A DNA stretch of 64,000 nucleotides, taken from Akkermansia muciniphila. GTDB lineage: Bacteria > Verrucomicrobiota > Verrucomicrobiia > Verrucomicrobiales > Akkermansiaceae. Position 1 is the stretch's first letter; each line of letters opens with the position of its first letter. The translations under genes and the position numbers were made by a program. The notes beneath the pieces are model-generated. The model saw nothing but the letters and a program-made list of their open reading frames with translations, was not told the DNA's origin and did not search any database. Positions 32,827 through 58,081 of this stretch are shown piece by piece. The DNA is taken from positions 1,259-65,258 of the forward strand of contig CAMCUY010000003.1 of the NCBI GenBank assembly GCA_945879075.1, in the 5' to 3' direction.

Positions 32827-32846
32827 GGACTGAAGTCCTGGACTAC
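32827..32846. repeat. Isolated REP half-arm identical to the RAYT-flanking REPs
   Basis: ggactgaagtcctggactac, exact 20-nt match to 48119-48138 and 48848-48867. Confidence 0.85.
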
Positions 32847-32851
32847 TTATT

Positions 32852-35422
32852 TCAGGCCTCCTTCGTCTTCGCGGCTTTCTTGGCGGCGACCTTTTTCACG
32901 GGGCGCGGCGGGAAGTCGAAGCCGATCTTGCCGTCCTTCACGTCGAAGGTGAGGTGGGCGTCGAACTTGCGCTTGGTGCGGTTGGAGACGAAGCCTTTGA
33001 GCACGTCGGTCTTACCGGTGGAAATGAGCTTGAGCATCTGGTCCTGCGGGATTTCGCACTGGAGGATGGACTTGCCGATGCGGATGCCGTGCGGGTCCTT
33101 CTTGGTGATGATTTCCGGGACGTGATAGGCCTTGTCGGTGGCGTAAACCTTGTAGGATTTGCCTTCTTCGGTTTTCGCCTCGCCGATGAGTTGCTCTTCG
33201 GTCAGCTCGGGCGGGCCGTCACGGTCGTCGTTTTCGAAGACGAAGTTGATCTTGAATTTCGCGTCTAACTCAAGGGCGGCGTCGAAGGGTTTGTTGAACT
33301 TCGAGCGGAAGCCGGTGAGCGGGCCGACGTGCTTGGTGGTGAAGAGTTGGATCGCTTCTTCCTCGGTGAGCAGGCGGCCGGCGATGTGTTTCTTCGCCTT
33401 GAATTTGCACTCGGGCTCGCGGCACTCATAGGTGGCCTCGGTTTGTTTGAGGCTCGGCGCGCCGCACATCGGGCAGGTGACCTTGAGATCGGGGAATACT
33501 TCGCTTTTCGCGAGATCGGCGGCGGAGCGGGCTTTGGTGCAGATCTCGTCGGTGTAAGCGATGATCTCCTTCATGAAATCGCCACGCTTAAGATTCCCCT
33601 GCTCCATCTGGCGGAGCTTAAACTCCCAATCACCGGTGAGTTTGGGCGAATAGAGTCCTTCGATTTCCATCTCGCGGACGAGATTGATGAGGCGCATGCC
33701 GGCTCCGGAGACGAAAAGCTCGCGGCCTTCGCGGGCGAGGTATTTCTGGGAAATCAGGCCTTCGATCGTGGCCGCGCGGGTGGCGGGCGTGCCGAGACCG
33801 CGCTCGGCCATGGCTTCGCGGAGTGCTTCGTCGTCGATGAGTTTGCCGGCGCCTTCCATCGCGGAAAGCAGCGTCGACTCGGTCATCCGGGCGGGCGGCT
33901 TGGTTTCCTCGGCGAGGACTTCAACGGATTCGGTGTGGGCAGGTTCACCGACGCTGACCGGGCAGAGCTCGTCTTTTCCGGCGGCGACACCGGGGCGGCG
34001 GCCGTAGACTTCGAGCCAGCCGGGTTTCACCAGGATGCGGCCTTCGGTCTTGAAGGTGTCTGAAGAAACAGGCGAGACGCCTGTGCCCCTTTCGCCACTC
34101 TCGATGCGGGTAAGGCGCGTCGTCTGCTCGAACTCGGCGGACGGATAGAAGACGGCGATGAAGCGCTTCACGATCATGTCGTAAAGCTTCTGCTCGGCCT
34201 CGCTGAGTTTGGCGAACTTGCCGGTCGGGATGATGGCAAAGTGATCGGAGACTTTCTTGCTGTCGAAGACGCGGCGCGATTTGTGCAGGCGCGGGCCTTT
34301 TTCATCGCTGCCGGAGAGCACGGCTTTGGCGTATTTCGCCACGTCGAGGCCGCTGTTGCCGACGTCCGCCATCGTCTCGCGGACGTTGCCGGTGTAATCT
34401 TCCGGCAGATACCGCGAATCGGTCCGCGGGTAGGTGATCATCTTGTGCTTTTCATAAAGCGCTTGGGCGATCTGGAGCGTGCCCTTGGCGGAAAACGGTG
34501 CCTCGCGCTGGAGCGTGGTGAGGTCGTAAAGCTGCGGGGAAATCTGCGAGTTCGCCTTTTTCTCCTCGGTGACCTTGCCGGTCTTGCCTTGGCAACGCGC
34601 TTGAATGGCCTCGGCCGTCAGCTTGTCCCAAATGCGCTCGGGCTTGGAGAGCGGGGCGTTTTCGTCCTTTTTCCAAGCTTCATCGATCCACTTGCCGAGG
34701 TATTCACCGGCCTGCACGCCGAAGGTGGCGTGGACTTCGAAATACGGCGTCGGACGGAAGGCTTGGATCTCGGCCTCGCGCTGGGCGAGGATCGCGAGCG
34801 TCGGCGTCTGGACCCGGCCGGCGGCGGTGATGTTGAATCCGCCGTGGCGGGAATTAAAGCAAGTCAGCGCGCGGGTGGCGTTGAGCCCGACCAGCCAATC
34901 CGATTCGGAGCGGCACTTCGCGGCGTCGGCGAGTGGCTTCATCGATTCGCCGGAGCGGAGGTTTTTCCACGCTTCGAGGATCGAGTCGTTGGTCATCGAC
35001 TGCATCCACAGCCGCTTGACCGGCTTGTCGATGCCGCCGATTTCCATGATATAGCGGAAGATGAGTTCACCTTCGCGGCCGGCGTCGCAGGCATTGACGA
35101 TGAGGTCGATGTCCTTGCGCTTGGCGAGCTTGAGTACCTGCTTGAGGCGGGCTTCGGAATCGGGAATCGGGTCGAGATCGAACTTTTCCGGGATGGCGGG
35201 AAGGACGCTGAAATTCCACGGCAGTTTCTTGCCGTTGGGGCCCATCGGCATCCGCAACTCGACGAGGTGGCCGACGGCGGAAGTGATGACTGCGTTTTCG
35301 TTTTCGAAAAACACATCGCGGCCGGAGCCGGACTTTTCGAACTTGCCGAGCTCCTTGGCGAGCACGCGGCTGAGGTCGGTCATGACGCTCGGTTTCTCGG
35401 CAATGATGAGTGTTTTTCCCAT
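32852..35422 (-). CDS. topB: DNA topoisomerase III
   Basis: [38 protein letters not shown] (active Tyr), [13 protein letters not shown] zinc ribbon, basic tail. Confidence 0.95.
34068..34084. repeat. REP-like palindrome within the topB coding sequence
   Basis: acaggcg-aga-cgcctgt perfect hairpin encoding TGVSPV; resembles the intergenic ACAGGC..GCCTGT elements. Confidence 0.6.
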
Positions 35423-35611
35423 GGTGAAATCCGGCCGTTAACCGGGGCTGGATTGAGGGACTAGGCTTACGGAGCGGGTTTTGGCAAGCCGATTGGTAAA
35501 TTTTTAAGATTCGGCTGAGACGGCCGGTGCTCTTTCCTGATTGGAAAATCCCCGACCCTTTCCACCGGAAAATCAGTTGCGACAACATCAAAGGGCCGTA
35601 AACATTCCCCC

Positions 35612-36352: not shown

Positions 36353-36378
36353 CGTGATTTAGGCAGGATGGTAGAAGA

Positions 36379-36402
36379 ACAGGCAGGAATGCCCACATCA
36401 CG
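36379..36402. repeat. Short REP-like element, family 2, copy 1
   Basis: acaggcaggaatgcccacatcacg; 21/24 identical to 51499-51522. Confidence 0.7.
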
Positions 36403-46984: not shown

Positions 46985-47385
46985 GTCGGGCCATGGAAAA
47001 TCCAGTGCATCGGCAGGCGGGGGAAATCGCGTTCGGCGATACCGACGCCAGCGGTTGGATGCACTTTCCGAATGTTTTCAAATACGCTGAGGAGGCGGAG
47101 CATGCGTTTTTACGTGCGCGAGGCGTGTTGGTTTTCGACCGGGAAAAAGGCGGCTGGCCGCGGGTGAAAGTGGCCTGCGATTTCAAACGGCCGTTCCAAT
47201 GCGGTGATCGCTTCGAGGTTCTGCTCGCCATCTCCAATATCGGCTCGTCATCAATTTCATGGGATTTCGAGATCATTAACGCCGCCGGGGAAATCGCCGC
47301 CTTCGGCAGCATGACCAATGTCCGTGTGGATCACGAAGGTCGCCCGAAGCCGATCAGCGAGGATGAGCGCGCCGCACTCATTTGA
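46981..47385 (+). CDS. Acyl-CoA thioesterase (4HBT hot-dog fold); alternative start 46993
   Basis: FGDTDASGWMHFPNVFKYAEEAE, CDFKRP. Confidence 0.85.
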   Translation: MSRAMENPVHRQAGEIAFGDTDASGWMHFPNVFKYAEEAEHAFLRARGVLVFDREKGGWPRVKVACDFKRPFQCGDRFEVLLAISNIGSSSISWDFEIINAAGEIAAFGSMTNVRVDHEGRPKPISEDERAALI

Positions 47386-47386
47386 T

Positions 47387-48082
47387 ATGGAATCCACTCC
47401 CGAAATTTCCGGCCGCGTCGTCCTTGTCCCGACTCCCATCGGCAACATGAGCGACATCACGCTCCGTGCTTTGGAAATTCTCCGCGGCGCGGACCGCATC
47501 GCCTGTGAGGACACCCGCCACTCCGGCCAATTGTTAGCGCATCACGGCATCTCCGGAAAGCCGCTCGTCTCGCTCCACGAGCACAACGAAGCCCGCCGCG
47601 CACCGGACCTCATCGCCGCTGCGAGGGCAGGCGAAACCATCGCCGTCATCAGCGACGCCGGCATGCCCGGCATCTCGGACCCCGGCTACCGGCTCGTCCA
47701 GGCCTGCATCGAATCCGGCACGCCGCTTGAAGTCCTGCCCGGTCCGTCGGCGGTCATCACCGCGCTGATCGGCTCCGGCTTTCCCTGCCACGCCTTCCAC
47801 TTCGGAGGCTTCCTCTCGGTGAAATCCGGCAAGCGCCGCAGCGCGCTGAGCGCCGCGCTGGAGTCCGGAGAAACCGGCATCTTCTTCGAGTCGCCTCACC
47901 GCATCATCTCCACCTTGGAAATCCTAGCGGAAATCGATCCGCTCGCCCGCACCTGCGTCGCCCGCGAGCTGACGAAGAAATTCGAGACCTACCACCGCGG
48001 CACGGCGGCGGAAGTGCTCGCGCATTTCCAAAGCCACCCGCCGAAGGGTGAGATCGTGCTGCTGGTCCACTCTGAAAAGTAG
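47387..48082 (+). CDS. rsmI: 16S rRNA C1402 2'-O-methyltransferase
   Basis: VPTPIGNMSDITLRA, ACEDTR, SDAGMPGISDPG, FFESPHR, RELTKKFE, KGEIV. Confidence 0.96.
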   Translation: MESTPEISGRVVLVPTPIGNMSDITLRALEILRGADRIACEDTRHSGQLLAHHGISGKPLVSLHEHNEARRAPDLIAAARAGETIAVISDAGMPGISDPGYRLVQACIESGTPLEVLPGPSAVITALIGSGFPCHAFHFGGFLSVKSGKRRSALSAALESGETGIFFESPHRIISTLEILAEIDPLARTCVARELTKKFETYHRGTAAEVLAHFQSHPPKGEIVLLVHSEK

Positions 48083-48138
48083 TCCAGGACTTCAGTCCGT
48101 TCTTCAACCCGGAAGAACGGACTGAAGTCCTGGACTAC
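48079..48138. repeat. GTAG-type REP hairpin with 27-bp perfect stem
   Basis: gtagtccaggacttcagtccgttcttc / aacccg / gaagaacggactgaagtcctggactac. Confidence 0.95.
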
Positions 48139-48803
48139 GGTTTCAAGACCTCTTCAGCCGTGATTCCCGCGCGGTCTCCGAGTCCCAGAACATACCCATC
48201 CGCCAATCCCGCCTTGCCGGGATTTCCCGCGATGTAACGGCGGTAGTGATCAAACTGGGCCTCGCTGCGCACGATGTGATCGAACGTCTCCGCCTGCCAG
48301 AGAGTGCCGGATCGTCTGAGAGTCTGGTTGATCATCCGCGCGCTGGCACCCTTCCACCGTTGGAGAATGGTTCCCAAAGTATGCTTTTCCAGTGGCTCTA
48401 TCAGAGCGTGGATGTGGTTGGGCATGATCACCCATGCGCCGATCTGATAACCTTTGCCGTGGCCTGACATGAGTTGTATGGCGAGGATTTCTGCGATCTG
48501 CGGACGAGCGAGGAGGGATTCGCCATGACCTGTGTCCAACAGTTCGTGAAACCGCGCGGTGAACTCTCTATGGAATGCGGTTCGTTCTGTTTCGGGGAGG
48601 TCGTCGGCACAGCCGTCGGGTGGCAGGCCGTGATCAGTTAGCCAGAGTGCGCGTTGTGCTTTCCATCGCTCCATGACAGTGCGGGGGACCGAATCCGCGA
48701 GGCGGGTGGTGATGAAATAGGTGCGACGCCATTGGCGCCAGTGAGGGAGATTAAGATGATGCCGGTGAACGGATTCATTCCCGTTGTAAGGGGTGAAGGG
48801 CAT
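48135..48803 (-). mobile_element. REP-associated tyrosine transposase (RAYT, HUH Y1 family)
   Basis: LPHW, TYFITTRL, WVIMPNHIHAL (HUH), WQAETFDHIVR, YIAGNP (Tyr); flanked by REPs on both sides. Confidence 0.92.
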
Positions 48804-48812
48804 GTCTGAAAT

Positions 48813-48867
48813 GTAGTGGAGGACTTTAGTCCGGAGCAATTCAGAACGGACTGAAGTCCTGGACTAC
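48813..48867. repeat. Second GTAG-type REP hairpin (left arm degenerate)
   Basis: gtagtggaggactttagtccg (18/21 to the consensus arm) ... gaacggactgaagtcctggactac (exact). Confidence 0.9.
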
Positions 48868-48871
48868 ATTT

Positions 48872-49630
48872 TCAAGCCAGCGTGATCCCCACCGGACAAT
48901 GATCCGAGCCCGTGACGTGCGGCAGGATCTCCGCGTCTTTCACGCGGCTCATGAACGGCGAGGAAACGCCGAAGTAGTCGATCCTCCAGCCGACATTCCG
49001 CTCCCGCGCGCCGCCGCGGAAGGACCACCACGAGTAGGCGTCCTTCTTGTCCGGATAGAAATGGCGGAAGGTGTCGGTGAAGCCGGCGTCGAGCAGCCCG
49101 CCGAAGCCGGCCCGCTCCTCGTCGGAAAATCCCGCGGAAAAGCGGTTGTCCTTCGGCCGGGCGAGGTCGATTTCCTGATGGGCGACGTTGAGATCGCCGC
49201 AGAAAACGACGGGCTTGGTTTTCGCCAGTTCGGCGACATGGCGGCGGAACGCCTGGTCCCAGGTCATCCGATAGGGAAGCCGCCGGAGTCCGTCCTGCGA
49301 GTTCGGCGTGTAAACATTCACGAGGTGGAAGTCCGGATATTCCAGCGTGAGCACGCGGCCTTCCTGGTCATGCTCGTCGATGCCGAGGCCCGTCCGGAAA
49401 TCGATCGGCTTTTCGCGGGTGAACACCGCGACGCCGGAGTAACCGGGTTTTTGCGCGGAATCCCAGTAGCCATGATAGCCGCCGAGTTCCAACGGCAGCT
49501 GCACTTGCTCCGGCCGCGCCTTGGTTTCCTGCAGGCAGAGGATGTCCGGCTTTTCCGCCGTCACAAAATCTCCCAAGCCTTTGCCAATCGTGGCGCGGAT
49601 GCCGTTTACGTTCCATGAAATGAGTTTCAT
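48872..49630 (-). CDS. xth: Exodeoxyribonuclease III / AP endonuclease
   Basis: MKLISWNVNGIRA, LCLQETK, GDLNVAH, YSWWS, WRIDY, GSDHCP. Confidence 0.96.
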   Translation of the reverse strand: MKLISWNVNGIRATIGKGLGDFVTAEKPDILCLQETKARPEQVQLPLELGGYHGYWDSAQKPGYSGVAVFTREKPIDFRTGLGIDEHDQEGRVLTLEYPDFHLVNVYTPNSQDGLRRLPYRMTWDQAFRRHVAELAKTKPVVFCGDLNVAHQEIDLARPKDNRFSAGFSDEERAGFGGLLDAGFTDTFRHFYPDKKDAYSWWSFRGGARERNVGWRIDYFGVSSPFMSRVKDAEILPHVTGSDHCPVGITLA

Positions 49631-49648
49631 CGGCACGGAGTTTTCACC

Positions 49649-51480: not shown

Positions 51481-51498
51481 TTTTAGGGAAAATGAAGC

Positions 51499-51522
51499 AC
51501 AGGCAGGAATGCCTGTATCACG
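51499..51522. repeat. Short REP-like element, family 2, copy 2
   Basis: acaggca-ggaa-tgcctgt perfect hairpin followed by atcacg. Confidence 0.75.
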
Positions 51523-58006: not shown

Positions 58007-58081
58007 GCGGGAAATGGAAAATTTCTCGGTTTTACTCCAAAGCGGCGTGGCGGCGATCACCGGTCGCCGCGAGATCCTTTC

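Follow-up and report, generated by a model that had tools for sequence, protein, structure and literature searches.

The diversity of class 2 TnpAY1 transposases, the double-foot type of repetitive extragenic palindromes (REPs) and the REPINs have already been described (PMC6006769). The motif Y...NP is the signature of class 2, and Y...Q that of class 1, to which IS200 belongs (PMC6006769). The catalytic residues of E. coli TnpAREP and its residues in contact with the GTAG tetranucleotide were listed by Quentin 2018 (PMC6006769). Inverted doublets of REPs are known as REPINs or BIMEs (PMC3116915; PMC6006769). In hairpins of the published 'double-foot' type, one foot is GTAG and the other is CTAC (Quentin 2018, PMC6006769); they can arise from an inverted REP dimer, and the subclasses 2.4 and 2.7 are known from 'various phyla' (PMC6006769). 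GTAG REPs were reported earlier in Verrucomicrobia (O. terrae) and Planctomycetes (Di Nocera 2013, PMC3733652). Here we describe a gene of a REP-associated tyrosine transposase (RAYT) and the two hairpins beside it, located in a stretch of 64,000 nucleotides of Akkermansia muciniphila (assembly GCA_945879075.1, contig CAMCUY010000003.1, positions 1,259–65,258), which is referred to below as the window. The region is very probably a REPtron, in which the gene of a domesticated Y1 HUH transposase of the RAYT/TnpAREP type, present once in the genome, lies between two copies of its cognate repeat. The locus had the following parts:

48135–48803, minus strand: RAYT gene, class-2 TnpAREP-like Y1 HUH transposase, 222 aa plus stop (open reading frame, profiles, fold)
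48079–48138, no strand assigned: REPIN A, an inverted doublet of REP arms (repeat search, fold, terminator-like match)
48813–48867, no strand assigned: REPIN B, the second inverted REP doublet, in the interval between xth and the RAYT start (repeat search, fold)

The RAYT open reading frame was intact, with the ATG at 48803 and 222 codons. Its stop codon TAG (48135–48137, minus strand) fell within the GTAG foot of the right arm of hairpin A, the hairpin of REPIN A. An intact HUH/tyrosine transposase between GTAG inverted repeats had been proposed in the initial annotation, and the open reading frame, the motifs and the coordinates were as given there. The protein was matched by the Pfam family Y1_Tnp ('Transposase IS200 like') with 38.8 bits. 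The NCBIfam profile REP_Tyr_transpos scored 78.6 bits (cut-off 80, 1.4 bits short) and the IS200 profile 28 bits (cut-off 55); by these scores, the protein is clearly nearer to the RAYT than to the IS200 profile, though formally under the equivalog threshold. The top PDB match by sequence was 4ER8, E. coli TnpAREP bound to a REP hairpin (E 3e-5), with an alignment spanning HUH, the WQ..(E/D)H..R segment and the Y...NP motif. An alignment of 37 homologues served as input for the AlphaFold model, which had a pLDDT of 85 and a pTM of 0.78. The top fold match of the model was also 4ER8 (E 3.2e-6, TM 0.55 on target), followed by the TnpAs of ISDra2, IS200, and IS608 (E 4.5e-4 and weaker).

The motifs of the protein were NHIH at 129–132 (HUH = H130-I-H132), WQ..DH..R, and YIAGNP at 190–195 with the tyrosine Y190. 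H130, H132, W169, D175, H176, R179, Y190, and N194 were invariant across the 37 homologues, and Q170 was present in at least 90%. W169, Q170, D175, H176, and R179 aligned with the GTAG-contact residues W94, Q95, E100, H101, and R104 of E. coli TnpAREP, and the HUH motif and Y190/N194 with HUH and Y115/N119 of the same protein. The combination of NHIH, WQ, and YI..NP with D in place of E100 resembled subclasses 2.4, 2.5, and 2.7 (PMC6006769). An N-terminal LPHW motif was conserved among the homologues. The dN/dS ratio relative to orthologues was 0.12–0.20, and the gene is under purifying selection. It was single-copy in the source genome (G000 in the comparisons; 2.39-Mb assembly, 90% complete), the closest paralogue being 42% identical. 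Searches with PHROGs profiles gave at most weak transposase-type matches and no phage link.

Both hairpins were composed of REPs. The arms of hairpin A (48079–48105 and 48112–48138) were 27 nt long and 100% complementary, with a loop of 6 nt; the 5' foot was GTAG and the 3' foot CTAC. Folded as single-stranded DNA (ssDNA), hairpin A had −35.7 kcal/mol (z = −10.9 relative to shuffled sequences); one REP arm by itself folded weakly, at −2.1 kcal/mol. The repeated unit of REPIN A reached 48071–48147 (TCTGAAAA ... GGTTTCAAG), running ~8 nt past each foot (TCTGAAA-N-GTAG ... CTAC-NN-TTTCAAG). Hairpin B had arms at 48809–48833 and 48847–48871 with 88% complementarity and a 13-nt loop, and folded at −19.5 kcal/mol (z = −6.6). 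An internal palindrome, GGACTTCAGTCC, was found in all arms, as the initial annotation had noted for the long arm. The 20-nt core of the REP occurred five times in the window vs. 0.01 times expected.

Hairpins A and B are each an inverted REP doublet (REPIN, BIME or 'double-foot' REP). The 27-bp perfect stem and 6-nt loop of hairpin A had been correctly recognized; the hairpin was also called unusually long, which does not hold, because a doublet of two REPs is of this length and is usual for such elements. Similarly, one arm just upstream of the ATG had been described as decayed. In REPIN B, the distal arm (48848–48867) was identical to the consensus. The gene-proximal arm (48813–48832), ending 9 nt ahead of the RAYT ATG (48803), differed at 3 of 20 core positions and had a TGG / T variant with a C-C/C-C internal loop. 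The differences and the position are therefore real, but the change is not random decay because the same GTAGTGGAGGACTT variant was present at the gene-proximal arm of four syntenic orthologous loci (G023, L051, L052, and L053).

A census of REP arms in the source genome (20-nt core, up to 3 mismatches), which had been suggested by the initial annotation, revealed 29 arms at 19 loci: 10 inverted doublets and 9 singlets. Eleven arms were identical to the master 20-mer. This REP family ranked second by abundance among the 16-mer families of the genome. The REP unit was ~27 nt, (TGAAA-N)-GTAG-TC-NN-GGACT-TC-AGTCC-GTTCTTC, that is, the GTAG guide tetranucleotide, four spacer bases, and a mini-palindrome of 5 bp whose apex, CT-TY-AG, is invariant. 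The inspected copies were intergenic or located just upstream of genes. The number of loci was modest beside Proteobacteria, for which more than 100 REP copies are typical.

The REP sequence varied across the set of RAYT orthologous loci (29 Verrucomicrobiales loci, 53–87% identity) in a regular manner. The arms had the layout GTA(G/C/A)-T-N3 followed by the mini-palindrome with the same invariant apex. In the foot, G1, T2, and A3 were invariant, and position 4 was mostly G, with C or A in some Prosthecobacter-type loci. Three outer stem pairs co-varied, giving GGACT/AGTCC, GAGCT/AGCTC, GAACT/AGTTC, GCGCT/AGCGC, CGACT/AGTCG, and GGGCT/AGCCC, and some loci had 7-bp mini-palindromes, e.g., GTGAGCT/AGCTCAC. 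These stem variants came from an earlier arm list that was pre-filtered for perfect palindromes. The covariation counts were obtained from a different set of arms, drawn from long hairpins alone, in which the inner palindrome had no part in the choice. In this set, pairs 10–19 were GC in 24 and AU in 21 arms, pairs 11–18 were AU in 25 and GC in 20, and no cells were unpaired. The covariation score was reached by 0 of 500 shuffles and collapsed in slid registers. The counts refer to sequences and not to events; at least five distinct stem variants still pair. Such covariation fits a hairpin that would be read by the RAYT protein. The GTAG foot, 4 nt, and the 5-bp stem together make 13 nt and therefore fit the 'foot plus stem' span of 10–13 nt given for the short REPs of subclass 2.5 (PMC6006769).

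The Pfam name of the family, the hairpins on both sides of the gene and the IS200, ISDra2, and IS608 TnpA structures as next fold matches could also be understood as signs of an autonomous IS200/IS605-type insertion sequence, the hairpins being its left and right subterminal ends. This explanation is largely refuted and can be regarded as highly unlikely. The IS200 equivalog profile stayed at 28 bits against a cut-off of 55, the tyrosine motif was Y...NP instead of Y...Q, and the gene was present in one copy with the closest paralogue at 42% identity. No tnpB adjoined the RAYT gene in the window. The same hairpin was found at ~17 loci of the source genome without any transposase, and one and the same palindrome stood at both ends of the locus, with no distinction between a left and a right end. 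Clustering of the protein with IS200/IS605 TnpA and absence of the repeats elsewhere, which the initial annotation had named as findings against it, were not observed.

The distribution of the gene and of the repeat was compared across 41 genomes of the genus and the order, with at least 60% identity as the threshold for orthologues and a reversed pattern as the control. Orthologues were present in only five genomes (G000, G018, G019, G023, and G024). By the pattern used in this cross-genome census, these carriers had 26, 59, 17, 39, and 25 REP arms, respectively. Among the 36 non-carriers, 33 had 0–2 arms, as did the reversed-pattern control; the exceptions were G001 (24 arms), G004 (8), and G037 (6). 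Thus, all five carriers belonged to the group of eight genomes that had 6 or more arms (hypergeometric p ~7e-5, a hand calculation that ignores relatedness). In public genomes, the orthogroup included Akkermansiaceae/Luteolibacter-type metagenome-assembled genomes (63–87% identity), Prosthecobacter (54–60%), and Verrucomicrobium spinosum (54%), and it spans Verrucomicrobiales. The gene was stand-alone at all 29 orthologous loci, and GTA-tagged REP arms were present in the flanks of all 29. Under a strict definition that required a GTA foot and a stem of 14 bp or more, a long hairpin was found on one or both sides at 20 of the 29 loci. The other RAYT paralogues of the source genome carried different REP types. 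The REP counts in the source genome, the joint occurrence of gene and repeat in the compared genomes and the flanks of the orthologues agree in indicating a RAYT-REP pair in a verrucomicrobium, as initially proposed.

If the region is a REPtron, its mode of action can be outlined by analogy with described systems. RAYT would bind the folded REP in ssDNA, probably at the replication fork, would read GTAG via the WQ..DH..R segment, and would cut and rejoin the strand using Tyr190 and the His130/His132 metal site. It may thereby maintain REP and REPIN units and occasionally copy them to further intergenic sites (~19 loci). The gene itself would stay put, anchored at the 3' end of rsmI throughout the subclade of 69–87% identity. 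From homology with E. coli TnpAREP, we infer that the protein binds and cleaves the REP, on which strand it acts, and that it is active today.

The surroundings of the locus and other features of the family in the window were as follows:

47318–48082, plus strand: rsmI, 16S rRNA 2'-O-methyltransferase type, TP_methylase domain (Pfam)
48872–49636, minus strand: xth, exodeoxyribonuclease III type, directly upstream of REPIN B and RAYT (open reading frame, Pfam)
48810–48839, minus strand: possible promoter within REPIN B (conserved upstream bases)
32827–32846, plus strand: single arm of the REP family, intergenic (core search of the window)

The genes rsmI (plus) and xth (minus) were convergent, which agrees with the initial annotation, and RAYT was co-oriented with xth. 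The stop codon of rsmI was the TAG of the left GTAG of REPIN A, and the final residues SEK were encoded by the REPIN A flank. The REPIN hairpins supply the stop codons of both rsmI and RAYT. They probably act also as a two-way terminator; a T-rich tail behind REPIN A on the minus strand was a terminator-like match for RAYT. In an Rfam search, the perfect hairpin matched miRNA precursor models far below the threshold, and these matches were taken as chance.

On the minus strand of REPIN B, a −35-like TTGCTC (48839–48834) was followed by an 18-nt spacer and a −10-like TACATT (48815–48810), 6 nt before the ATG. Syntenic orthologues had TTGATA, TTGATC, or TTGATG at the −35-like place and, 17–18 nt further on, TAC(A/G)TT just before the ATG. 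The arm and the loop of REPIN B may tentatively be considered as a promoter for a near-leaderless RAYT mRNA. A sigma-70 consensus scan of the RAYT upstream region found no promoter.

Comparison of the gap between rsmI and xth in relatives, also suggested by the initial annotation, revealed it to be empty, scarred, or filled with a toxin-antitoxin pair. The same arrangement, with rsmI ending in VHSEK* or VHSEM*, was found in G000, G023, G024, L051, L052, and L053, in which the RAYTs were 69–87% identical. Both sides of the arrangement were kept in G023 and L051–L053, and the rsmI side in G024; in G023 the xth side was a 105-nt fragment, and an intact xth was located elsewhere. The C-termini of rsmI products were HSEK* or HSEM* where a REP is present now or was present formerly, and HAAEVRNS*, HAAG*, or HAPD* elsewhere. 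In G004, rsmI ended with VHSEM* and was separated from xth by a 15-nt palindrome, GTAATCCAGGACTAC; the gap of 24 bp (L025:2259–2284) held TCTGAAATGTAATCCAGGACTACGTTTTCAGG, corresponding to the outer 7 bp of the stem with the interior deleted. This palindrome looks like the collapse scar of a REPIN or REPtron. The gap of G005 was 27 bp long without a REP trace. In G001 (L022:792–1470), it contained an insert of ~700 bp with a PIN / Phd-YefM toxin-antitoxin pair, the Xth of this genome being 96% identical, and an insert similar in size and layout was found in G007 (L046:760–1500). Small selfish modules have landed repeatedly in the rsmI/xth gap.

Some of these observations could be explained if the entire REPIN-gene-REPIN unit was mobile and moved or was exchanged as a block between intergenic sites and genomes. 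The RAYT gene was more AT-rich than its neighbors, as noted initially (GC content 58.1% vs. 64.4% for rsmI and 62.4% for xth), and also had a lower GC content at third codon positions (GC3 65% vs. 82% and 80%, respectively). The orthologues of G018 and G019 had other neighborhoods with REPINs still on both sides, the distribution in the genus was patchy (4 of 24 genomes), and G001 carried a toxin-antitoxin pair at the same site. The outer REPIN arms formed a 29-nt inverted repeat with 97% complementarity, 739 nt apart, and the scar of G004 resembled a loss of all that lies between such outer arms. However, throughout the 69–87% subclade RAYT was at the 3' end of rsmI wherever this could be read (G000, G023, G024, and L051–L053), the gene was single-copy in the source genome, and in G023 the divergence of RAYT was equal to that of Xth (87% identity each), which fits vertical descent with losses. 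Movement of the whole unit as a block thus seems quite improbable. Overall, the site was mostly inherited vertically, with losses and with replacement of alleles, which has been described for RAYTs before.

The repeat population was mostly old, since its loci were common with the sister genome and the loops of doublets differed between loci. At least 8 of the 16 REP loci of G001 were at the same positions in G000. The REPIN at G000:C46 was common to G000, G001, and G017. The REPIN at G000:C15 was present in G000, G001, and G023, and G017 had a clean empty site, where the flanks abutted within a terminator T-tract; the insertion point was just before TTTTCAAAC. TTTCA was often next after CTAC at other REP copies of the source genome, but we claim no target motif because a single clean empty site is too few. 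The only resemblance between doublet loops was that of hairpin A and the C46 REPIN. In hairpin A, the inner stem and its loop (TCTTCAACCCGGAAGA) were unlike those of the syntenic orthologues and matched the C46 REPIN with 2 differences in 24 nt. Hairpin A was therefore replaced or converted in the G000 lineage, which also explains why it is perfect. The initial annotation regarded the pair as recent or active. The intact gene, the purifying selection on it and the renewal of hairpin A are in favor of this, but most REP loci are old and common with G001, and the view is only partly supported.

At several places, the sister genomes G000 and G001 differed near REPs. In G001, REPs of this family (REP-A) were present (L160, L167, and L170) where G000 had 1.4–2.2 kb of ordinary-looking genes, e.g., a sulfatase (C9:1132–3300, C36:8267–9950, and C96:3119–4545). 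The two flanks of the REPIN at G000:C1 were apart from each other in G001. REPs appear to mark indel or rearrangement junctions between these two genomes.

The conservation of many REP loci between species, the position of REPIN A between two converging genes and its terminator-like match on the minus strand, the presence of the stop codons of rsmI and RAYT in its GTAG feet and the 24 arms retained by G001 without the gene raise the question of whether the hairpins are kept chiefly for the host, as terminators, mRNA stabilizers or stop-codon donors, and are no longer moved by the Y1 protein. We consider this unlikely. RAYT is under purifying selection with all catalytic residues invariant, REP sequence and RAYT co-diverged across the order, the inner part of REPIN A was renewed in the G000 lineage, and a filled/empty polymorphism exists at C15.

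Several observations weigh against the interpretation of the locus as a REPtron. The RAYT profile score of 78.6 was slightly below the curated cut-off of 80. Compared with E. coli TnpAREP, the protein had ~55 additional residues, and further helices were inserted in the stretch from strand 1 to the HUH strand. In a tree with fragments of 4ER8 and 2F4F, the orthogroup had a support of 100, but the deep branches had no resolution and there were long-branch warnings; the phylogeny proposed in the initial annotation therefore defines the orthogroup and not its relation to 4ER8 and IS200, and the class assignment rests on profiles, motifs, and fold. The covariation of the palindrome would be just as compatible with a duplex site bound by a dimer. 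Most REP loci are old, and present-day transposition is putative. Finally, G001, the closest relative, had 24 arms and neither an orthologue nor a fragment of it in a 95%-complete assembly; REPs can thus persist without RAYT, or the gene of G001 was not assembled. G004 likewise had REPs without a RAYT gene.

The source genome contained further members of both families, with 13 Y1_Tnp matches and several other REP families; altogether, at least six RAYT/REP pairs were found in a genome of ~2.4–2.6 Mb. Four paralogues, 35–42% identical to the window RAYT, were located in frame inside metH, ispG, leuS, and alaS and had their own flanking palindromes. The metH cassette (paralogue 42% identical; L006:1393–1989 = G000:C6:18152–18748, minus strand) was within the Met_synt_B12 activation domain, with one GTAGCGGCGATCACCGGTCGCCGC REP per side, read through as ...CSGDHRSPR... 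and ...SRRPVIAAT.... The GTAGCGGCGATCACCGGTCGCCGC REP was the most abundant repeat of the genome (~40 arms). The three other cassettes were L003:771–1334 (G000:C87, minus strand), L008:1501–1812 (G000:C87:5902–6213), and G000:C109:463–1014, with the hosts ispG (GcpE), alaS, and leuS. Host Pfam domains were split on both sides of Y1_Tnp in the in-frame cassettes. Long frames of 800–1600 aa around paralogues recurred in many genomes of the genus and the order. A literature query on in-frame RAYT cassettes within host genes found nothing. A REP of the leuS-cassette family, GAAGAAACAGGCGAGACGCCTGTGCCCC, was present in the window at 34062–34089 (hairpin 34068–34084), in frame within a coding region. 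Other REP families were found at 58050–58070, 36377–36395, 51497–51515, and 35511–35527 of the window, namely B (GCGGCGATCACCGGTCGCCGC), C (GAACAGGCAGGAATGCCTG-like, two copies), and D (CCGGCTGAGACAGCCGG-like). A stand-alone paralogue, 39% identical, was located at G000:C91:552–1103 and had its own GGCATGGACGTCTCGTCCATGC-type palindromes (~15 arms in the genome).

A broader possibility, which we regard as doubtful but worth stating, is that the REPtron is the intergenic form of the cassette RAYT subfamily, recognizable by the LPHW...FRLADSLP N-terminus and 35–42% identity. This subfamily would settle at gene ends and in protein loops, its REP arms serving as stop codons, as for rsmI and RAYT in the window, or as linker peptides, and the unit would occasionally be relocated or swapped as a block. 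If so, such relocation or swapping would account for the different contents of the rsmI/xth gap among relatives: nothing, a scar, or a toxin-antitoxin pair.

The initial annotation implied novelty by remarking that RAYTs are best studied in Proteobacteria. This has to be corrected: both RAYTs and GTAG REPs (for the latter, PMC3733652) have been published from Verrucomicrobia, JGI already names homologues of the window RAYT 'REP element-mobilizing transposase RayT', and the window REPtron is a further, well-supported case. It can serve as a well-documented reference outside Proteobacteria. Its usefulness lies in a repeat population that is small and has one clear cognate gene, in sites that are naturally empty or scarred, and in a series of REP/RAYT pairs that diverged together within Verrucomicrobiales. 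The covarying mini-hairpins are natural compensatory mutants for testing how RAYT reads a hairpin. For the more surprising in-frame cassettes, which belong to the same RAYT subfamily and occur in the source genome too, the REPtron is a stand-alone comparator.

Among known systems, the TnpAs of IS200/IS605 (IS608, ISDra2) are similar to the window RAYT in catalytic fold and in the logic of recognition of an ssDNA hairpin plus a guide tetranucleotide. They differ in having Y...Q, dimers, multiple copies, distinct ends, and often tnpB, none of which was seen here. Subclasses 2.4 and 2.7 of TnpAY1 (PMC6006769) resemble the window RAYT by their described motifs, as opposed to profiles (NH[IFV]H, WQ, and YI..NP), and their double-foot long REPs are likewise hairpins with 5' GT[AG]G and 3' C[TC]AC; unlike in these subclasses, no REP insertion was seen inside the window RAYT gene.

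The E. coli TnpAREP (YafM) REPtron (4ER8; PMC2817692; PMC3479197) differs from the window case by an identity of only ~16% over the fold alignment, a protein of 165 aa vs. 222 aa in the window RAYT, which also has the LPHW motif and additional helices ahead of the HUH strand, and DHLH/EHMH instead of NHIH, with E100 replaced by D in the window RAYT. The E. coli genome has hundreds of REPs vs. ~19 loci in G000, and the REP of G000 has a 5-bp mini-palindrome 4 nt from GTAG rather than a long bulged stem. The two systems have in common the Y1 HUH fold with the HUH motif, the WQ..(E/D)H..R GTAG-contact segment, the Y...NP motif, and a single-copy gene flanked by inverted GTAG-REP pairs, with REPs also scattered intergenically.

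The REPIN-RAYT system of Pseudomonas (PMC3116915; subclass 2.5, PMC6006769) belongs to another phylum and has much larger repeat populations than G000; the window RAYT also differs from it by NHIH, as in subclasses 2.4 and 2.7, and by a longer protein. In both systems, the REPs are short, with a foot plus stem of ~13 nt, and mostly form inverted doublets folding into one long hairpin. Both have D at the E100 position and several RAYT/REP pairs per genome, each with its own repeat, and inheritance is mainly vertical.

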